DNA of 64,000 nt from Parcubacteria bacterium C7867-007 (lineage in GTDB: Bacteria; Patescibacteriota; Minisyncoccia; Phycocordibacterales; Phycocordibacteraceae), in the NCBI GenBank assembly GCA_001189195.1, contig LFCQ01000006.1, positions 56,841-120,840 of the forward strand, written 5' to 3'. The first letter of the stretch is position 1. Each line of letters begins with the position of its first letter. The notes beneath the pieces were generated by a model. It was not told where the DNA came from and made no database searches. It saw nothing but the letters and a program-made list of their open reading frames with translations. The position numbers and the translations under genes were made by a program. This document shows positions 23-42,870 of this stretch, piece after piece.

Positions 23-376
23 TTGCTCCTGTTCACTAACGGAGGAGCTACGTTTGCTGGGTACGCTCTCTCGAGAGAACGCACTCGAGAGAAGTATATG
101 CACATGGAGATATGGGGAAGGACCTCCTTCATCTACAATCTTCTCCTGCTCATAGTGGTGGTGAGTGCGCAGTATGTCATCGTACAAGGCAGACCCTCGA
201 CGCTGTTCTGGGTGCTTCTTGGGTTTGCGACCATCACGGTGATCTTGTCGTCAGTCCTGGTGTTCTTCAAGAAGTGGGCGGATCGAAACCGTCTCCACAG
301 AAAAGTCGCTGTTCCCTATGCGCTCATTGCGCTTGTGGCGGCCATCACGGGAGTGATGTTTGCATACCGGCTCTGA
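23..376 (+). CDS. hypothetical membrane protein (3 predicted TM segments)
   Basis: ORF with hydrophobic segments; convergent terminator hairpin downstream. Confidence 0.4.
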   Translation: MLLFTNGGATFAGYALSRERTREKYMHMEIWGRTSFIYNLLLLIVVVSAQYVIVQGRPSTLFWVLLGFATITVILSSVLVFFKKWADRNRLHRKVAVPYALIALVAAITGVMFAYRL

Positions 377-1276: not shown

Positions 1277-1918
1277 ATGACAGAGCCTAAAACAAAGGAG
1301 CACCCATTCACTGGTAAGACTGGAAGGATCTTGGTGTTGGTATTCACCCTCCTCTATATAGCTGCAGCCGGTATCTATTTCTTTACGACCGGTGTGCAGG
1401 AATTTACTCTGTACCTTGCAGTGCTTCTTGCGCTGGTAGGACTTGTTGCATGGACACTTCCCAGAACTAAGTTGCCGGTATGGGCCCTCTGGTTACTCTC
1501 GATTCTAGGGCTTCTCCATGCACTTGGCGGAGGTGTGCAAGTGAACGGTGATGTACTTTATAACCTCATTCTCATTCCGATCATAGATAATGGTTTGAAT
1601 GGAATCACCATCTGGCGCTTTGATCAGCTGGTACACCCTTATGGCACTGCGGTCGGTGCACTCATTGCATACTTTTTCATAGCTCGACACGCAACCCTTC
1701 CGCGCCTCTGGATGGTACTTCTTGCCGTATTCGTTGCAATGGGTCTCGGTGCACTCAATGAGGTGATCGAATTCATCACCAAACTCAGCATCCCAAATAC
1801 CGATGTGGGAGGATATAACAACACGGCAATTGACCTCTGCACTAATGCCATCGGTGCGGTTATCGGTGCTGCGATAGCGGCACTTACGTGGGGAAAGAAA
1901 CCACCGCTTGATACTTAA
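1277..1918 (+). CDS. hypothetical polytopic membrane protein
   Basis: 213-aa ORF with multiple hydrophobic helices between two tRNA-Thr genes. Confidence 0.45.
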   Translation: MTEPKTKEHPFTGKTGRILVLVFTLLYIAAAGIYFFTTGVQEFTLYLAVLLALVGLVAWTLPRTKLPVWALWLLSILGLLHALGGGVQVNGDVLYNLILIPIIDNGLNGITIWRFDQLVHPYGTAVGALIAYFFIARHATLPRLWMVLLAVFVAMGLGALNEVIEFITKLSIPNTDVGGYNNTAIDLCTNAIGAVIGAAIAALTWGKKPPLDT

Positions 1919-1955
1919 GTATTTTCTCGGTACATTTTGAAAACACAGTAGATAT

Positions 1956-2031
1956 GCCGAGGTAGCTCAGTTGGTAGAGCAATTGCATCGTAAGCAATGG
2001 GTCGGGAGTTCAAGTCTCCCCCTCGGCTCCA
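1956..2031 (+). tRNA. tRNA-Thr (anticodon CGT) with encoded CCA
   Basis: acceptor GCCGAGG/CCTCGGC, anticodon loop ATCGTAA, T arm GGGAG-TTCAAGT-CTCCC, 3' TCCA. Confidence 0.8.
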
Positions 2032-2035
2032 GAAG

Positions 2036-2065
2036 AAAAACTGACTCTAATTAGAGTCAGTTTTT
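2036..2065 (+). terminator. intrinsic terminator (AAAAACTGACTCTAATTAGAGTCAGTTTTT)
   Basis: perfect hairpin flanked by A-run and T-run. Confidence 0.65.
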
Positions 2066-2118
2066 CTTTATCTCCACCACACCGTCCTCTGATCACTGTT
2101 CCGCTATTCTGCTTCTAC

Positions 2119-2186
2119 GCCGGTGGCAGGTTTGCAGTGGTCCCCCTCATCAAGGTACCTTTGAGGGTTCAATTCCCTCCACCGGC
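2119..2186 (+). other. 68-nt tRNA-derived palindromic element, copy 1 (GCCGGTGG...GAGGG-TTCAATT-CCCTC-CACCGGC)
   Basis: 8-nt 5' arm complementary to 3' end plus a T-arm-like hairpin; same 68-nt length and same ends as copy at 42282-42349; middle does not fold as a canonical cloverleaf. Confidence 0.5.
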
Positions 2187-2312
2187 ACAAGAATGTTGAC
2201 GAATTTATCATTGAGCAATAATATTATTAGCGATGAGGGGCACCTGCAAATAAGCAAGAGTACTGGGAAAGGCGGCCGAAAGGTCGTTTTTCTTTTTTGC
2301 TATACTCACCCC

Positions 2313-3194
2313 ATGAGTCCTGAGGAACGCCTAGCAGAAATAGAAGAGCTAATGATGTCTCCAACTTTCTGGAGCGATAAGGAGGCTGCACAGAAAGTAG
2401 TACGTGAATACCAATCCCTTAAAGAGGGAGGTTCTGGTGATGGACATGATGGTGGTTCCGCAACCCTGGCTATTCTTGCGGGAGCAGGGGGTGATGATGC
2501 TGAAGACTTCGCACGCATGTTACGTGGGATGTATGAAGGCTATGCAGATGAAAAAGGATGGAGTGTACGTGAGCTCCATGCCAACGAGAATAATCATGGA
2601 GGGTACCGTAACCTACTCCTTGATATAGACGGGAGGGGTGCATACGGACGCTTGAAGCATGAGTCTGGGGTGCACCGTCTTGTACGTATCTCCCCCTTTA
2701 ATGCCAACGATAAACGACAGACATCTTTTGCGCTTGTGGAGGTCTTGCCCGTACTAGCACCAAACGAGCAGACAGCACTCAATCCAGAAGATCTTGAGGT
2801 CACCTTTGCACGTTCTGGTGGAGCGGGAGGACAGAATGTGAACAAACGAGAGACTGCTGTACGTATTACCCACACCCCAACAGGAATTTCTGTACACGTA
2901 TCTAGTGAGCGTAGTCAGCAAGCAAATAGGGACAAGGCTGTTTCACTTATCCAGGCAAAGATATTCGCACGCGAAGAAGAGAAACGTGATGCAGAAGCAA
3001 AGGGACGTTCTATCGCAGCAACCACAGCGAATGAGTGGGGCAGTCAGATACGTTCCTATGTATTGCACCCATACAAAATGGTAAAAGATCACATAACCGG
3101 CCACGAATCACATGATCCAGAGGCTGTTTTGGCGGGAGATCTGGATGCGTTTATTGACGCATCCACAAATTCTGGGCAAGAGGGTGAAGGGTAG
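2313..3194 (+). CDS. prfB: peptide chain release factor 2 (no programmed frameshift; N-terminally short)
   Basis: SPF and GGQ motifs; aligns to RF2 from about residue 28 of B. subtilis RF2; TATACT box 12 nt upstream of ATG. Confidence 0.85.
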
Positions 3195-3211: not shown

Positions 3212-3892
3212 ATGATCTATTTCGACAAGGTGACCAAGCTATACCGAGACGGGACTCCCGCTCTTGAAGACATCACCCTATCGATTGCTCCTAAGGAATT
3301 CGTTTCTATCGTTGGTCACTCAGGCGCAGGCAAGACCACTCTCCTTAAAATGCTTCTTGCAGAAGACGCACCGACAGAAGGCACGGTCTATTTTGAATCA
3401 ACAGATGTGCACTCGCTCCCAAAGAGCCTTCTGCATCACTACCGTCGCAAGATTGGTATGGTCTTCCAAGACTTCCGTCTCATTCCAAACAAGACTGCGT
3501 ACGAGAACATTGCTTTTGCTATGGAAGCAGCAGGTCGTCATGATGATGAGATCGCTTCAGATGTACCTCATATTCTTGATCTGGTAGATCTTGGTAGCAA
3601 GGGAGGACACTTCCCGCACCAGCTTTCAGGAGGAGAGCAACAGCGTGTGGCTATTGGTCGTGCAATCGTAAACCAGCCAGATGTGATTGTGGCTGATGAG
3701 CCAACGGGGAACCTAGATCCGGTAAATACCTACGAGATCGTGGAGATTCTAAAGAAGGTTAACGAACTGGGAACAACGGTGCTTATCACCACACACAATA
3801 AAGGTGTGGTGGACGCGATGGGTAAGCGCGTTATTACTATGGAGCGTGGACGCATAACCCGTGATGATGCGCACGGCCAATATATTCTTTAG
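3212..3892 (+). CDS. ftsE: cell division ATP-binding protein FtsE
   Basis: Walker [13 protein letters not shown] signature LSGGEQQR, Walker B; TATAAT 9 nt upstream of ATG. Confidence 0.85.
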
Positions 3893-6934: not shown

Positions 6935-6965
6935 CCGGCGGCCCCAAGGGTCGCCGGTTCTTTTG
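6935..6965 (+). terminator. intrinsic terminator CCGGCGGCCCCAAGGGTCGCCGG + TTCTTTT
   Basis: GC-rich hairpin with T tract; identical copy at 7332-7362. Confidence 0.8.
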
Positions 6966-7331: not shown

Positions 7332-7362
7332 CCGGCGGCCCCAAGGGTCGCCGGTTCTTTTT
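7332..7362 (+). terminator. intrinsic terminator, duplicate of 6935-6965
   Basis: identical hairpin CCGGCGGCCCCAAGGGTCGCCGG + T tract. Confidence 0.8.
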
Positions 7363-10085: not shown

Positions 10086-10093
10086 ATAAAAAG

Positions 10094-10140
10094 ATCCCCA
10101 CGTCGTACCAAACCCCACAGCTCGCTAACTATAGTCATCA
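10094..10140. repeat. intergenic linker repeat copy R1 (CCCCACGTCGTACCAAACCCCACAGCTCGCTAACTATAGTCATCA)
   Basis: shares the core CCACGTCGTACCA.ACCCC.CAGC with copies at 10840, 11402, 11903, 12844, 13455 and 20111. Confidence 0.7.
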
Positions 10141-10792: not shown

Positions 10793-10866
10793 GGAGCCGC
10801 CAGTACCGAAAGGGAACGGCGGCTCTGCTACTTAAGCAAGGTTCCCACGTCGTACCAACCCCCAGC
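10793..10866 (+). repeat. linker module R2: terminator hairpin GGAGCCGCC..GGCGGCTC + TACTTAA + core GGTTCCCACGTCGTACCAACCCCCAGC
   Basis: about 85% identical to module at 12796-12870. Confidence 0.75.
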
Positions 10867-11398: not shown

Positions 11399-11401
11399 TT
11401 A

Positions 11402-11462
11402 GGGTTCCCACGTCGTGCCAAACCCCCAGCACTTGACTTTTAATGCATTTAGTGCTATTAAT
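11402..11462 (+). repeat. linker module R3: core GGTTCCCACGTCGTGCCAAACCCCCAGC followed by TTGACT-N17-TATTAAT promoter
   Basis: repeat core directly followed by sigma70-like -35/-10 for the next gene. Confidence 0.7.
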
Positions 11463-12795: not shown

Positions 12796-12890
12796 GGAGC
12801 CGCCTGTTTCCGAAAGGGAACGGCGGCTCTTCTACTTAATATAGGTTCCCACGTCGTACCACACCCCCAGCTCGCAAACTATAGTCATCG
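12796..12890 (+). repeat. linker module R5: terminator hairpin + TACTTAA + core GGTTCCCACGTCGTACCACACCCCCAGCTCGCAAACTATAGTCATCG
   Basis: near-duplicate of R2; 3' part matches R1. Confidence 0.75.
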
Positions 12891-20101: not shown

Positions 20102-20110
20102 ATTAATCTA

Positions 20111-20131
20111 GTTCCCACTTCGTACAAAACC
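20111..20131. repeat. degenerate linker repeat copy R7 (GTTCCCACTTCGTACAAAACC)
   Basis: matches the core of R2-R5. Confidence 0.45.
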
Positions 20132-20148
20132 TCAAGCTTAACTAACCT

Positions 20149-21637: not shown

Positions 21638-21670
21638 TACGCTCCTCATATCACCCTGTGCGTATAGTAC
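21638..21670 (+). promoter_or_regulatory. conserved upstream motif TTACGCtCCtCATATCAC-N8-TATAGTA
   Basis: near-identical motif at 42242-42277; weaker copy at 2088-2113. Confidence 0.45.
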
Positions 21671-21697
21671 GTGGGTTCCTACTATATACTTTCACTT

Positions 21698-22432
21698 ATG
21701 GAACAAACCTACGTAATGACCAATCATGATCTACTCCTTGATGGTAGCGGGAAGCGCTATGAGCTTCGTGTACGTGACTTGCCGCAAGAAGAGAAACCAC
21801 GTGAGCGCCTTAGTGCGGAAGGTCCTGCTGCACTTTCCGTGCAAGAACTTCTTGCGATAGTGCTCACCACAGGAACGAAGAAAGAAGAAGTTCTTTCTAT
21901 GGCAACACGCATTGTTAATGAGTATGGAGATCGTAATGCTCTTATGGCAAGCGATGCCAAAGTACTTGCTGCGGATCTCGACATACCGCTAGTGAAAGCG
22001 ATGCAGATTGTTGCGGTAGGGGAACTCGGGCGCCGCTTCTTCCGAAAGCAGAAGAATGGAGCTGCAATAATCCGTACCGCTCGTGATGTATATGACTACA
22101 CCGTGGATATGCGTACCCTGCCAAAGGAACATCTGCGCGGCCTATACTTGGATGCACACTATCAGGTGATTCATGACGAGACACTATCTATTGGAACAAT
22201 CGATGCAAACCTGATTCACCCACGTGAAGTGTTTCGCCCAGCACTCGCACATGCGGCAGCTGCAGTAGTACTCGTTCACAATCATCCCTCAGGTGTTGTT
22301 ACGCCAAGCGAAGCAGATTGTATGGTCACTCAACAAATTGCTGCAGCAGGAAGAATTCTTGGAATTGAACTTGTGGACCACGTTGTTATTACGGAGGATA
22401 CCTTTACCAGCATATCTACTGAATTCTCATGA
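21698..22432 (+). CDS. radC: RadC-like JAB-domain protein (UPF0758)
   Basis: HNHPSGVVTPSEAD JAMM motif; TATATACT 7 nt upstream of ATG. Confidence 0.8.
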   Translation: MEQTYVMTNHDLLLDGSGKRYELRVRDLPQEEKPRERLSAEGPAALSVQELLAIVLTTGTKKEEVLSMATRIVNEYGDRNALMASDAKVLAADLDIPLVKAMQIVAVGELGRRFFRKQKNGAAIIRTARDVYDYTVDMRTLPKEHLRGLYLDAHYQVIHDETLSIGTIDANLIHPREVFRPALAHAAAAVVLVHNHPSGVVTPSEADCMVTQQIAAAGRILGIELVDHVVITEDTFTSISTEFS

Positions 22433-24009: not shown

Positions 24010-24762
24010 TTACGCGAAGGGTAAGAGTCCGTTCAATTCCATGATCGACTGACGGGCTTGTTCTGTGTGTACACCGGTGTCGCGTAGATGTTCCAAGTTG
24101 CGAACTCCCCAAGTTAGGGCAGCTCGGCTTTTCTGTGCCCGCGCACGCTTGGCAATGAACGTTACTGCCTCAGGGATCTCGACGGCTGTAACTACTGCCA
24201 ACCCGTCCACACAGGCAAGCTTCACCGCAGCAGACCTTCCATCCACTACATAGATGAAAGTATCCTCGGGTATTTCATACATCTGCTGCCGTTGAGGAGA
24301 GCCATTTTTCCCTGCTTGCCTGAACGGCTGTATCTCTCCGTCACCGCCTGGCCGAAGTGTCAAACCTTCTGCAAGAGGCTCTATTCCTTCGAATAGAAGA
24401 TTTTCACTGCGTATGTGAAGAATCAGACTCCTCACTTCATCTGATGCATGTACCAGTCGTTCGCCGTTACTCAAAGTGTCTTTAAGTCTTGCGCGCATAA
24501 CTCGTCCACCCAGCATGCCAGGATAACCATGAATATCGCGTCGATTTCCGAGGAGCACTCTGCAGTCAGGTGCCAGAACTACTGCCGGAGGACCTTCATT
24601 CATGACTGCGCCTATGCCGGATTCCATAGGGACTCCATTCGTAAAGCGGTACCCGGCAGCGATTGTGAGACAGTTAGCAAGGGGCATGTCTGCCTCCCAT
24701 TCAAGAGCGCTTCCACAATTAGGAATTGCATTAGTAATACGACAGGGGAGATAGGGAGTCAA
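24010..24762 (-). CDS. hypothetical protein (250 aa) divergent from lexA
   Basis: ORF; no confident family assignment. Confidence 0.4.
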   Translation of the reverse strand: MTPYLPCRITNAIPNCGSALEWEADMPLANCLTIAAGYRFTNGVPMESGIGAVMNEGPPAVVLAPDCRVLLGNRRDIHGYPGMLGGRVMRARLKDTLSNGERLVHASDEVRSLILHIRSENLLFEGIEPLAEGLTLRPGGDGEIQPFRQAGKNGSPQRQQMYEIPEDTFIYVVDGRSAAVKLACVDGLAVVTAVEIPEAVTFIAKRARAQKSRAALTWGVRNLEHLRDTGVHTEQARQSIMELNGLLPFA

Positions 24763-24795
24763 TTTCAGTCCTGTACACAGGCTACTGTTGACGTT

Positions 24796-24809
24796 CGAAC
24801 AATTGTTCG
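24796..24809. promoter_or_regulatory. LexA box (Cheo-type) CGAACAATTGTTCG inside a TTGACG-N18-TATACT promoter
   Basis: perfect match to CGAAC-N4-GTTCG consensus between -35 and -10 of lexA. Confidence 0.65.
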
Positions 24810-24823
24810 ACTATACTGTTTCT

Positions 24824-25390
24824 ATGGAAATGAGCCGACACAGGAAGGTATTGTCCTTCTATAAGAAACATAAGCGTATGCCCTCTATAACGGAGATTAT
24901 GGCTATATTTGGCCTCTCTTCACGCAGTAGCGGGTTCTATGTAACAAACCAGTTAGTGCGCGAAGGTATTGCAGAGAAGGATAGTACCGGAAAGCTCATT
25001 CCTGGCCCGGACCTATTTACGCTTCCGGTACTCGGTCACATTCGTGCCGGATTTGCTGCACCTGCAGAAGAAGAACTTGCAGACACTATTACCATCGGTG
25101 ATTACCTCCTAGGACGACCTGAAGCGAGCTACCTACTAAAAGTGGAAGGTGACTCCATGCAAGATGCCGGTATACAGGAAGGAGACATGGTGGTGTTTGA
25201 GCGCACCAATGATTACAAACCAGGGGACATTGTTGTTGCTCTCACAGAAGATGGATACACCCTCAAGTATCTGCGCAAGAAACCGAATGGATATTATCTG
25301 GAGGCAGCTAACGATAAGTATCCAGATATACATCCGCGAGAAGGTTCTATTATTGGTGTCGTCGTATCAACATTTCGTACCTATGGCTAA
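24824..25390 (+). CDS. lexA: LexA repressor
   Basis: S24 peptidase domain with catalytic GDSM...K, N-terminal winged HTH; TATACT 6 nt upstream of ATG. Confidence 0.85.
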   Translation: MEMSRHRKVLSFYKKHKRMPSITEIMAIFGLSSRSSGFYVTNQLVREGIAEKDSTGKLIPGPDLFTLPVLGHIRAGFAAPAEEELADTITIGDYLLGRPEASYLLKVEGDSMQDAGIQEGDMVVFERTNDYKPGDIVVALTEDGYTLKYLRKKPNGYYLEAANDKYPDIHPREGSIIGVVVSTFRTYG

Positions 25391-25572
25391 ACTCTCTACC
25401 TTCGATCCGTTCTTCAGCATGTATCTACGTACACCCGCGCGTCATACCACTACACGCCACACATCACAGTTTGCATCCTTCACAGAACGGGAACGGCGAT
25501 ACCTCTCTCCTAAACGTATGATCCCACTATCTCTGCGTTCTGAACGTGTGTCCGCACGTCAATCAGTGGTTC

Positions 25573-26886
25573 ATGAGTGATCTGCTTTCAACACGATCCT
25601 TTCCACGCGCAATCGTACACTTTGATGGTGACTCCTTCTTTGCATCAGTAGAGCAAATCATGAATCATGAGTTGCGTGGCAAGCCGGTAATCACCGGTGG
25701 AGAGCGTGGCGCTGCGACATCTCTTTCGTATGAAGCAAAGCGTATGGGTGCACATCGCGGTATGACAATGCGTGAAATTAAAAAGATATGTCCAGACGCA
25801 ATCATTGTTGCTTCGGACTATCTTTCATATTCCATATATGCACGACGCATGTATACGATCGTTCGTTCCTTCACACCCGATGTGGAGGAATACAGTATTG
25901 ATGAATGTTTTGCAGACATAACCGGACTCAGACAGAAATACCGTATGTCCTATGCACGCATCACACAAATGATTCAGGAGAAGCTCCATGCAGATCTTGG
26001 TATCACCTTTAGTGCAGGACTCGGTCCCAACAAGAGTCTTGCAAAGATTGCGTCAAAACATCGTAAACCAGCAGGCTTCACCTCTATTCCTGCAAAAGAA
26101 GCACATCTGTTTCTTAAAGATCTTCCCATAAGCAATATCTGGGGCATGGGAGGAAGTACCAGCTTGTATCTAGAGAAGTTGGGGGTACGCACTGCACTCG
26201 AGTTTGCACAAAAGGATGAGTACTGGCTTGCAACAAATAAGATTAGCAAGCCGTATCGTGATATATGGCTTGAGATGCGAGGCTCTTTTGTTAAGAAGCT
26301 GAACACTGAGACCGATGATTCAATTGGCTCAATCATGAAGACACAAACCTTCACACCCCCTTCGAGTGATCGTGCGTATGTACTCTCACAGCTTGCTCGA
26401 AACATAGAGGGTGCCTGTGCAAAAGCACGCAGGCATCAAGTAAGAGCACGGTCGGCATCATTCTACTTAAAGACACAAGATTTCACCTATGGTGGTCTTT
26501 CTATAGAGCTTTCAGTGCCGCTTGCAGATCCACGAGAATTCCAGAGACTCGTAGAAATAGAGTTCGATCGTGTATTTGAACCAGGAACACTCTATCGTGC
26601 CACGGGATTCACTCTTCGATCCATCACTGCAGAGTATGCAGCCACAAACGATCTGTTCGGAGACATAGAGCGCGCACAGACTAAGGAACGTATTCTAGAA
26701 ACAGTAGATGGGCTTAATCATAAATTCGGAAATGGTACCGTGCATTTCGCCTCCAGCTTCACTGCGCGTAAAGAGGGCGAGGAGCGTGCAAAAGAAAGGG
26801 CACGTAAAGCTCGTCCAAAGATTGGACTCTCTGTTGAGAAGAAACGAAAGTCTCTCAACATCCCATACCTAGGTATTGTTCGGTAG
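25573..26886 (+). CDS. dinB: Y-family DNA polymerase (DinB/Pol IV-like)
   Basis: HFDGDSFFASVE and SIDECFADIT catalytic motifs present. Confidence 0.8.
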   Translation: MSDLLSTRSFPRAIVHFDGDSFFASVEQIMNHELRGKPVITGGERGAATSLSYEAKRMGAHRGMTMREIKKICPDAIIVASDYLSYSIYARRMYTIVRSFTPDVEEYSIDECFADITGLRQKYRMSYARITQMIQEKLHADLGITFSAGLGPNKSLAKIASKHRKPAGFTSIPAKEAHLFLKDLPISNIWGMGGSTSLYLEKLGVRTALEFAQKDEYWLATNKISKPYRDIWLEMRGSFVKKLNTETDDSIGSIMKTQTFTPPSSDRAYVLSQLARNIEGACAKARRHQVRARSASFYLKTQDFTYGGLSIELSVPLADPREFQRLVEIEFDRVFEPGTLYRATGFTLRSITAEYAATNDLFGDIERAQTKERILETVDGLNHKFGNGTVHFASSFTARKEGEERAKERARKARPKIGLSVEKKRKSLNIPYLGIVR

Positions 26887-42109: not shown

Positions 42110-42183
42110 TTGACATGTCATAGCAATTTGCTACGATTGTCTATGACAGTTACCCTCTGGTGAAAACCAAACGAGAGTGGAAG

Positions 42184-42220
42184 AAAAACACCGACCCATA
42201 AAGTCGGTGTTTTTCTTTTT
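42184..42220 (+). terminator. intrinsic terminator AAAAACACCGACCCATAAAGTCGGTGTTTTTCTTTTT
   Basis: perfect hairpin and T tract. Confidence 0.75.
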
Positions 42221-42241
42221 CAGTTGTATTTGATTTTCTTC

Positions 42242-42277
42242 TTACGCCCTCCATATCACTATTTTTCTATAGTAATC
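42242..42277 (+). promoter_or_regulatory. conserved upstream motif TTACGCCCTCCATATCAC-N8-TATAGTAAT
   Basis: near-identical to 21638-21670. Confidence 0.45.
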
Positions 42278-42281
42278 CTGC

Positions 42282-42349
42282 GCCGGTGGTTTCGGTGACG
42301 AGAGGGTAATTGTCACTCCACTCTTGAGGGTTCAACTCCCTCCACCGGC
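42282..42349 (+). other. 68-nt tRNA-derived palindromic element, copy 2 (GCCGGTGG...GAGGG-TTCAACT-CCCTC-CACCGGC)
   Basis: same ends and length as 2119-2186; internal GTGAC/GTCAC hairpin; sits immediately upstream of a TATATACT box and ATG at 42370. Confidence 0.5.
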
Positions 42350-42369
42350 TAAGGATATATACTGAATAC

Positions 42370-42870
42370 ATGAAAATAGTCACGGCACATGATCCCATGC
42401 AGCCGGGATACTGCTATGAATTAACGGCACCAGAAGGGGAAGGCTTTGATTCAGAGTTCAAACCAGATCTCACACCCAAAGATATGTTTGAACGCGGCGT
42501 CTTTGGAGGAAACTATTTTGAAGGACATCTCGACGAGTTCCCCAAAGATTGGCTAAAGAACGCAAAGATCTCTACGGTACACGACAAGAGCTTGAACTAC
42601 TTTGGTATCGACGCATCACAACCTTATGAAGTCTGGAAGGCAAAAGGATGGATATACAAAGATGATCCACGGGGGTGGTTCCAGTGGTATTGCCGATACT
42701 ATAGGGGGCGACGTATCCCCGAAGAAGATGCACGCCAAATAAAGCGCTGGAAGCAAATGGTTCGCCATGTTGCTCAGGTACGGTATGGATGCCGCAAAGG
42801 TGATTTCACCTGCCGAACACGCCAGCGACAAGCTCTGTTACACTGGGCATACGATAGCGCAGCACTCTAA
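42370..42870 (+). CDS. hypothetical protein (166 aa)
   Basis: ORF; TATATACT 6 nt upstream of ATG. Confidence 0.45.
   Translation: MKIVTAHDPMQPGYCYELTAPEGEGFDSEFKPDLTPKDMFERGVFGGNYFEGHLDEFPKDWLKNAKISTVHDKSLNYFGIDASQPYEVWKAKGWIYKDDPRGWFQWYCRYYRGRRIPEEDARQIKRWKQMVRHVAQVRYGCRKGDFTCRTRQRQALLHWAYDSAAL

Follow-up and report, generated by a model that had tools for sequence, protein, structure and literature searches.

Non-coding RNAs that are shaped like a transfer RNA (tRNA) include the pseudo-tRNA 'tRNA-Other' of Bacillus cereus and the bacterial YrlA Y-RNA-like tRNA mimics. RNAs that act by pairing with another RNA are well known from antisense control pairs with loop-initiated pairing, such as ColE1 RNA I/RNA II, CopA/CopT, and the type I toxin–antitoxin RNAs, as well as from 3'ETS-leuZ, a sponge of small RNAs that originates from a tRNA precursor. 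To our knowledge, a dedicated complementary partner gene has been described for none of the RNAs mascRNA/menRNA (RF01684), 'tRNA-Other', and YrlA. Here, we analyzed a stretch of 64,000 nucleotides (nt) of Parcubacteria bacterium C7867-007 (contig LFCQ01000006.1 of assembly GCA_001189195.1, positions 56,841 to 120,840 of the forward strand; in the following called the window), in which a tRNA-like element occurs twice, each time next to a predicted gene for a small RNA that is complementary to it. With moderate confidence, and as far as sequence data can tell, we regard this locus as a two-gene RNA/anti-RNA module of a Parcubacteria lineage that is present in two cognate copies in this genome.

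The tRNA-like member resembles mascRNA/menRNA, 'tRNA-Other', and YrlA in being a tRNA-shaped RNA for which a use in decoding is improbable. However, mascRNA is eukaryotic and cut from the 3' end of a long RNA, and YrlA is larger and tied to rsr/rtcB, neither of which was seen among the neighboring genes examined. With antisense pairs and sponges (ColE1 RNA I/RNA II, CopA/CopT, 3'ETS-leuZ), the locus has in common two small RNAs that can form an extended duplex of 26–33 base pairs (bp), a loop of a structured RNA that is complementary to the single-stranded tail of the partner, and a cognate specificity between paralogous pairs. It differs from antisense pairs in that the genes of the two partners are neighbors on one strand and not antisense at one locus, in that it has neither a conserved toxin open reading frame (ORF) nor a replicon context, and in that one member is a tRNA-derived cloverleaf. 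The two-RNA module matches no curated RNA family, and in the literature we found nothing on tRNA-like RNAs that have an antisense RNA or a sponge as partner, nor on tRNA-like RNAs or leaderless messenger RNAs (mRNAs) in the Candidate Phyla Radiation (CPR)/Patescibacteria.

The RNA genes and their partner promoters are listed here with their positions in the window, the GUC type being copy 2 and the CAU type copy 1:
42282–42349, forward strand: GUC-type tRNA-like mini-cloverleaf RNA (copy 2), the core of the finding, with the loop AAUUGUCAC, a T at the discriminator position (42350), and 82.9 bits with our covariance model R1
2119–2186, forward strand: CAU-type tRNA-like mini-cloverleaf RNA (copy 1), with the loop CCUCAUCAA, an A at the discriminator position (2187), and 76 bits with R1
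42110–42137, forward strand: putative sigma-70-type promoter of the partner of copy 2, TTGACA-N16-TACGAT, with 10 of 12 consensus matches; hexamers and spacing are kept in the related contigs L043 and L061
42143–42222, forward strand: predicted small RNA that partners copy 2; a free 5' tail and a hairpin span 42143–42180, and a terminator hairpin (42181–42217) with a U-run comes next; fold z-score −5.5
2196–2224, forward strand: putative sigma-70-type promoter of the partner of copy 1, TTGACG-N17-TAATAT; the related contig L069 keeps the hexamers but not the spacer
2231–2298, forward strand: predicted partner small RNA of copy 1, with a terminator at 2265–2294

An earlier note on this DNA had reported a second copy of a tRNA-like element in the region 42242–42349, and the sequence is indeed as described there, with its companion at 2119–2186; what the note had missed is the main feature of the locus, the complementary partner RNA. 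Each element is 68 nt long, and the two copies share CGCCGGTGG at the 5' end and the 26-mer TTGAGGGTTCAAYTCCCTCCACCGGC at the 3' end, with a differing middle part of about 35 nt. The 3' 21-mer, searched with up to 3 mismatches, gave 2 matches in the window, compared with 0.00 expected from shuffles. In the predicted fold, a mini-cloverleaf, the acceptor stem comprises 7 bp and the T stem 5 bp with a 7-nt loop; between them lie a 3-bp D-like hairpin, the loop of which contains GG, and an irregular 9-position arm with bulges and a 9-nt loop. This arm abuts the T stem, as the variable loop is absent, and base 8 is a G that is paired to C18 in the 3-bp hairpin.

Syntenic contigs of relatives were recovered by exact-protein look-ups on the neighboring genes, which yielded three independent sequences of the GUC type and two of the CAU type (L070 is nearly identical to L069). 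In a MAFFT alignment of six sequences, 92.9% of the cells of the four-helix fold were paired and 11 of the 24 pairs were changed on both sides, which was equaled by none of 500 shuffles, and slid controls reached at most 64.5%. The acceptor helix was paired in 100% and the T helix in 96.7% of cases, and compensatory exchanges are found, for example, at 1:72 (GC to AU), at 6:67 (UA, UG, and CG), and in the T stem (GC to AU). The T loop is TTCAAYT or TTCGATT in five of the six sequences, the sixth being TCCAATC of L043, which thus lacks U55. The loops of the two types read YUGUCAC (GUC) and CUCAUCA (CAU), and the base at the discriminator position tracks the type, with U in the GUC and A in the CAU type. 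CCA is not encoded after the elements, the 3' flanks being TAA, ACA, and TCC.

The elements are clear descendants of a tRNA in which the 'top half' was kept and the D and anticodon arms were reduced, because their 3' 22-mer is identical to the 3' ends of genuine genes for tRNA-Thr, -Met, and -Leu from many phyla and because ARAGORN with relaxed thresholds takes the loops to be like those of Asp(GUC) and Met(CAU) tRNAs. As in canonical tRNA (RF00005), the acceptor stem is stacked on the T stem, the T loop is TTCAAYT, and the D-like loop contains GG; the 7-bp acceptor stem, the 5-bp T stem, and the 7-nt T loop (T-Psi-C-R-A-N-Y) also agree with the definition of a tRNA. However, the elements do not show the traits that define a tRNA used in decoding, namely U8, a D stem of 4 bp, a 7-nt anticodon loop (U33, R37) on a stem of 5 bp, and a variable loop; they possess instead the paired G8, a 3-bp mini D-hairpin, a 9-nt loop on an irregular arm, and a selected antisense partner. 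ARAGORN at default settings called just the 4 genuine tRNAs of the window and neither tRNA-like copy, and Rfam at gathering scores returned the same 4 tRNAs and again no tRNA-like copy. Copy 1 reached 20.7 bits with the tRNA model RF00005 (threshold 29), and copy 2 had no RF00005 match at E ≤ 10, its best score within the clan being 22.7 bits for tRNA-Sec (threshold 47). The best resemblance to a non-tRNA family in Rfam was to mascRNA (RF01684), with 23.6–23.7 bits compared with a gathering score of 42.5.

Two other RNA classes were considered and dismissed. ARAGORN reported no transfer-messenger RNA (tmRNA) at default or relaxed settings, pair 3:70 is C:G in all sequences and not G3:U70, and the short ORFs of the partner are not conserved as a tag. 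A T-box leader was rejected as well, as the pairing involves about 30 bp with the 5' half of the tRNA-like RNA and not the anticodon plus NCCA, and the Rfam scan of the elements gave no T-box match even at E ≤ 10.

The partner unit measures about 70–85 nt and combines a consensus sigma-70 promoter with a strong intrinsic terminator. In copy 2, it is located between a dsbA-like gene and the element, and in copy 1 between the element and prfB; among relatives, the partner promoters have fixed −35 and −10 hexamers and diverging spacers. The first 35–40 nt or so of the partner are predicted to pair with nt ~2–37 of the adjacent tRNA-like RNA over 26–33 bp. In copy 2, this concerns partner positions 42143–42174 and nt 2–35 of the tRNA-like RNA (26 bp, −35.9 kcal/mol), and in copy 1 positions 2231–2267 and nt 1–34 (27 bp, −37.2 kcal/mol), where GAUGAGGGG of the partner pairs with the loop sequence CCCCUCAUC of the tRNA-like RNA. 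Duplexes of −36 to −46 kcal/mol were obtained at all five independent loci, with z-scores of −4.4 to −7.7 relative to shuffled partners.

That this extended complementarity is kept by selection is seen in its covariation, in a strand asymmetry of G.U pairs, in the above z-scores, and in its cognate specificity. In the structure-blind alignment A4 of the whole intergenic region, 8 of 26 inter-RNA pairs were changed on both sides and 88.5% were paired, compared with 34–55% in slid controls, a level that 1 of 500 shuffles reached. The duplex of the forward-strand RNAs was more stable than the duplex of the reverse complements at each of the five loci, by 0.8 to 11.2 kcal/mol, so that G.U pairs matter, which points to a pairing between forward-strand RNAs. 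Within the window, cognate pairs reached −32.0 kcal/mol and non-cognate pairs −13.0 kcal/mol. The predicted fold of the partner begins with a free 5' tail that is complementary to the 9-nt loop, followed by a hairpin that repeats the stem sequence of the long arm, and ends with the terminator; this modeled geometry suits a nucleation between loop and tail and a subsequent strand exchange. The partner gene precedes the tRNA-like gene in the GUC type but follows it in the CAU type, so that an action in trans is the common denominator of both arrangements.

The partner 5' ends begin with AUG at four of the five loci. The short ORFs found there (MTVTLW, MTRFCLL, MRGTCK, and MRGIPLGMPGEKI; 6–13 codons) were rejected as coding, being unconserved and having ACG in place of ATG in L061. 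A similarity between a terminator arm and the acceptor strand, which could be read as an antiterminator or as an external guide sequence for RNase P, holds by eye at just two of the five loci and was likewise dropped. A palindrome overlaps the −10 hexamer of the GUC-type partner promoter: GATAGC-N5-GCTATC, at 42120–42136 in the window (as CATAGC-N5-GCTAC), at 2249–2265 in L043, and at 1043–1059 in L061. It is perfect in the two relatives and matches in 5 of 6 positions in the window, it resembles a repressor operator, and the remainder of the spacer varies in L043 and L061.

Upstream of both tRNA-like genes, and at a third site, lies a promoter-like block:
42219–42274, forward strand: block of copy 2, TTCAG..TTTGATTTTC..CTTACG..ATATCAC-N8-TATAGT, −10 hexamer at 42268–42273, 69.7 bits with a position weight matrix (PWM), aligned with 8 other instances
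2056–2111, forward strand: block of copy 1, −10 hexamer TATTCT at 2105–2110, 62.6 bits with the PWM; its 5' part overlaps the terminator of tRNA-Thr(CGT), and orthologous blocks are present in L069 and L070
21614–21669, forward strand: third copy of the block, before radC and with no tRNA-like element, −10 hexamer TATAGT at 21663–21668, 73 bits with the PWM

The motif TTACGC..ATATCAC-N8-TATAGTA, which the earlier note had described as common to three loci, is real and forms part of this 56-nt block, the three sites of which scored 62–73 bits in the PWM scan compared with a shuffle maximum of about 6, with no sites of intermediate score. In copy 2, TTACGC is found at 42242–42247, ATATCAC at 42253–42259, and TATAGT at 42268–42273. 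The spacer between TTACGC and TATAGT comprises 20 nt (20–21 nt across the instances) and was correctly judged to be too long for sigma-70, for which the range is 16–19 nt; a sigma-70 consensus scan did not report the block, and there is no −35 hexamer at sigma-70 spacing. ATATCAC-N8-TATAGTA by itself, by contrast, is not significant (2 matches, at 42253 and 21648, against 0.46 expected, with 8 of 100 shuffles reaching 2), and ATATCAC is not universal, L204 having AGGGGTG in its place. The best-conserved parts are TCAG-N2-TTTCTTTATCT, CTTAMG 20–21 nt upstream of the −10 hexamer (TTGAAC in L061), and the −10 hexamer itself.

The block precedes radC in the window, in L203 (from the sister genome C7867-008), and in L204, it precedes the tRNA-like RNAs in L043, L061, L069, and L070, and in L204 it is additionally found before a thiF–histidine kinase operon that adjoins an OmpR-type response regulator. 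An OmpR-type response regulator is also encoded two genes downstream of radC in the window. A descent of the motif from a local duplication had been named as what would argue against a dispersed regulatory site; the block is, however, kept at orthologous positions in other genomes and occurs at the thiF–histidine kinase operon as a fourth kind of locus. By its sequence, the block is a dispersed and conserved class of promoter-like sites that lacks sigma-70 spacing. The suggestion of an alternative sigma factor or regulator site thus stands as far as a dispersed promoter or regulator site is concerned, whereas no sigma factor or regulator could be identified. Among known promoters, the activator-dependent or long-spacer promoters of bacteria (PhoB/OmpR-type, MerR-type) are similar in having a good −10 hexamer, no −35 hexamer at 16–19 nt, and conservation up to about −60, and one instance of the block lies inside a two-component locus. 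Unlike PhoB/OmpR-type promoters, the block has no detected tandem direct repeats with a period of 11 bp (autocorrelation at this offset, z = 1.3), and the repeats expected of a PhoB/OmpR box are thus not supported. Circumstantial support for a promoter of this type comes only from the block within the response regulator/kinase locus of L204 and from the response regulator two genes downstream of radC. Nor does the spacer contain a conserved dyad. A candidate fourth block on the minus strand (window positions 92–114), which had 19 bits on the core PWM, was discarded, as the upstream part is missing.

At the prfB and 42370-gene loci, the block reads as the promoter of the tRNA-like RNA, because its −10 hexamer is placed exactly 8 nt before nucleotide 1 of the RNA in both copies and in all orthologues, that is, at five independent loci, where the hexamer varies as TATAGT, TATTCT, TATACT, TATCCT, and TATGCT. 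The two downstream genes and radC appear to have leaderless promoters of their own, and the block would therefore drive the RNA and not prfB or the 42370 gene. In case of prfB, the hexamer arrangement is TATACT-6-ATG with the start at 2313, and the sigma-70 unit and a terminator stand between block and gene; radC has an additional −10-like TATACT at 21685–21690 with the ATG at 21698. For the gene at 42370–42870, which codes for a protein of 166 amino acids (aa), the corresponding feature is:
42355–42360, forward strand: TATACT as a −10-like hexamer, 6 nt upstream of the ATG of this gene, with an equivalent hexamer in L043 and L061
The earlier idea that the site is shared by radC, prfB, and the 42370 gene therefore keeps its radC part, as the block does precede radC, whereas the other two genes have their own −10 hexamer 6 nt before the ATG.

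The RNA/anti-RNA module would function as follows. The first gene would give rise to a tRNA-derived 68-nt RNA from the dedicated conserved block, with a transcript start 0–2 nt before nucleotide 1, and the second gene to an RNA of 70–85 nt from a consensus sigma-70 promoter, ending at an intrinsic terminator. The single-stranded 5' tail of the partner would nucleate on the 9-nt loop of the tRNA-like RNA, and the pairing would then spread over the long arm and the D-like hairpin to the acceptor strand, up to 26–33 bp, thereby opening the cloverleaf as well as the 5' hairpin of the partner itself. One RNA would in this way titrate or inactivate the other, probably by mutual inactivation, and a duplex of such length would be an expected substrate of RNase III. 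The block promoter, which may be regulated differently and is shared with radC and the two-component operon, would determine the relative amounts of the two RNAs, and the tRNA top half probably provides processing and stability via RNase Z and the CCA-adding enzyme.

The sequence anatomy, the conservation, the covariation of both the fold and the inter-RNA pairing, and the cognate specificity are directly observed and constitute the basis of this model. Several points weigh against it. RNAduplex energies of about −32 kcal/mol also arise by chance at a few other 45-nt tiles of the 64-kb window, and the case therefore rests on the adjacency at every locus and on the covariation, not on the energy. 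In the CAU type, both RNAs could share one transcript, which would permit a cis switch. No target besides the partner and no protein partner was identified, and close relatives have no module at the same loci (L044–46, L062, L064–68). The three plus two independent sequences belong to a narrow lineage, all module loci are metagenomic contigs, and scans of GTDB species genomes, JGI metagenomes, and IMG/VR gave no additional copies.

We weighed the module against a cis-acting leader switch, reduced tRNAs, pseudogenes or attachment (att) site remnants, and an invertible promoter, each of which fits less of the evidence. If the element and the complementary segment were alternative structures of a single transcript that control read-through into, or translation of, prfB and the 166-aa gene, comparable to an attenuator or a T-box-type device, it would be understandable that the CAU type has no terminator between element and complementary segment but one just before prfB, that the GUC-type element lies 14–20 nt before the ATG of the gene, and that a fold of 2100–2240 pairs CCCCCUCAUC with GAUGAGGGG in cis. 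However, the order of the segments is reversed between the two types, a strong terminator and the promoter block separate them in the GUC type, each complementary segment has its own conserved consensus promoter, and both downstream genes have their own leaderless −10 hexamer; moreover, neither an alternative antiterminator pairing with the terminator nor a T-box or other leader match in Rfam was found. We hence regard such a switch as unlikely. It is still less likely that the elements are reduced but genuine Asp-GUC-like and Met/Ile-CAU-like tRNAs that serve translation or donate aminoacyl groups off the ribosome. The canonical acceptor stem, T arm, and T loop (TTCAAYT), the GG retained in the D-like loop, the similarity of YUGUCAC and CUCAUCA to the anticodon loops of tRNA-Asp and tRNA-Met, with which ARAGORN at relaxed thresholds agrees, and the type-specific base at the discriminator position (U in GUC, A in CAU) would fit such tRNAs. 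These features are opposed by the scores of both copies below the tRNA model thresholds and the silence of default ARAGORN, by the paired G8 and the missing 4-bp D stem and variable loop, by a 9-nt loop on an irregular arm instead of 7 nt on a 5-bp stem, and by the T loop UCCAAUC of L043, which is devoid of U55. The GUC type, furthermore, has a discriminator U, whereas tRNA-Asp normally has G73, two supposed isoacceptor types would have one acceptor stem and one T arm in common, and decoding offers no role for a selected complement of 30 bp to the 5' half.

Decaying tRNA pseudogenes or att-site remnants, with the two copies as attL/attR-like direct repeats 40 kb apart, would account for the 26-nt 3' direct repeat at a distance of 40,163 nt, for the identity of the 22-mer with the 3' ends of genuine tRNAs (Thr, Met, Leu) from many phyla, and for the patchy distribution among relatives. 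Yet the 5' acceptor strand and a complete fold are present in both copies, all four helices are maintained between genomes by compensatory changes, promoter and spacing are conserved, and other genomes retain each copy at the respective orthologous locus. The genes between the copies are ordinary chromosomal ones, their composition is uniform, and no integrase was noticed; for these reasons, and because both copies are complete and conserved at orthologous loci, an integrated element was rejected. We consider decaying remnants highly improbable. The same low probability is assigned to a device at the DNA level, in which the complementary segments would be inverted repeats that flank an invertible promoter for phase variation. 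Both types do have a promoter between the complementary segments, namely the block (GUC) or the sigma-70 promoter (CAU), but the repeats are imperfect, with mismatches that are mostly G.U-compatible for the forward-strand RNAs only, the forward-strand duplex is the more stable one at five of five loci, there is no recombinase gene nearby, and all assemblies show a single orientation.

Returning to the RNA/anti-RNA module, we tentatively consider, at a low probability, a wider generalization: a class of tRNA-shaped antisense RNAs in the CPR, in which the top half would recruit the tRNA machinery (RNase P/Z and the CCA-adding enzyme, perhaps also EF-Tu or the ribosome), the variable lower half would be a programmable guide to the cognate partner, and orthogonal GUC and CAU pairs would be governed by promoters of a stress type, a class to which radC and a two-component system would also belong. 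Where mRNAs are leaderless, a tRNA-shaped antisense RNA could act on 5'-terminal start regions; the AUG at the partner 5' ends of four of the five loci is noted in this context. Regulatory RNA biology has barely been explored in the tiny genomes of the CPR/Patescibacteria, and a module that is conserved and duplicated would demonstrate that even reduced genomes maintain dedicated RNA–RNA regulation; it would also be a natural example of a tRNA scaffold that is reused as antisense RNA. The block defines a small candidate regulon, with the two RNAs and radC here and the thiF–kinase operon in a relative, and its non-sigma-70 architecture offers a handle on transcription control in organisms that are not yet cultured.

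With regard to the distribution of the module, L043 and L061 have the GUC-type copy before the 166-aa gene and L044–46, L062, L047, and L063 lack it, and the CAU-type copy between tRNA-Thr(CGT) and prfB is present in L069 and L070 and absent from L064–68. In the GTDB species genomes, the 3' 22-mer had 41 matches in many phyla, all of which were genuine-looking tRNA 3' ends by inspection. The 3' 25-mer had 0 matches in the JGI metagenomes, the 13 matches of a pattern of promoter plus 5' acceptor strand in the same metagenomes were all due to chance, and two patterns gave chance matches only in IMG/VR. A search of the window and of about 100 kb from related contigs with the covariance model R1 detected no extra copies. 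A comparison of positions 3340–3870 of L064, which carries the closest prfB relative (87% identity), with window positions 1918–2313 shows that block, tRNA-like RNA, and partner are missing there; the gap falls between tRNA-Thr and the terminator before prfB, and the module behaves as one terminator-bounded unit of insertion or deletion.

Most genes of the window have a −10-like TAnnnT hexamer 6–8 nt before the ATG and no Shine-Dalgarno sequence, and leaderless mRNAs seem to be the rule in this Parcubacterium, which affects the interpretation of 5' regions in this group. The genome is a 702-kb metagenome-assembled genome with 48% G+C from Hanford subsurface sediment (PMC4508563); that paper mentions neither promoters nor leaderless mRNAs, and none of 12 of its 19 matching tRNA passages deals with a tRNA-like element. 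The 166-aa protein (AB202_02295) had no sequence match in Pfam, NCBIfam, PHROG, or PDB. The prfB gene for RF2 (2313–3194) is a single frame of 293 codons with no N-terminal stop or frame shift, and the programmed +1 frameshift of many bacteria seems to be absent here. The gene of tRNA-Thr(GGT) at 1200–1272 is followed after 4 nt by the ATG (1277) of a DUF2238 gene, with no −10 hexamer in between, and the 5' end of the DUF2238 mRNA may be made by 3' processing of the tRNA.

Some further elements of the window are worth mentioning. An upstream element, GGTTCCCACGTCGTACCAAACCCCCAGC, is repeated at 10091–10134, 10838–10864, 11401–11427, and 12842–12868, and in a weaker form at 20108–20134. It is located about 20 nt before −10-like hexamers (CATAAT, ACTATAGT) and may, judging from this placement, represent another family of promoters or operators; the radC leader contains the similar sequence GTACGTGGGTTCC. 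A perfect direct repeat of 30 nt, CCGGCGGCCCCAAGGGTCGCCGGTTCTTTT, which is terminator-shaped, is found at 6935–6964 and 7332–7361, 397 nt apart. Near radC, an SOS-like gene cluster (24788–26886) codes for a LexA-like S24 peptidase and an IMS-family polymerase, and the palindrome CCTGTACACAGG is located between divergent genes of this cluster at 24762–24788.
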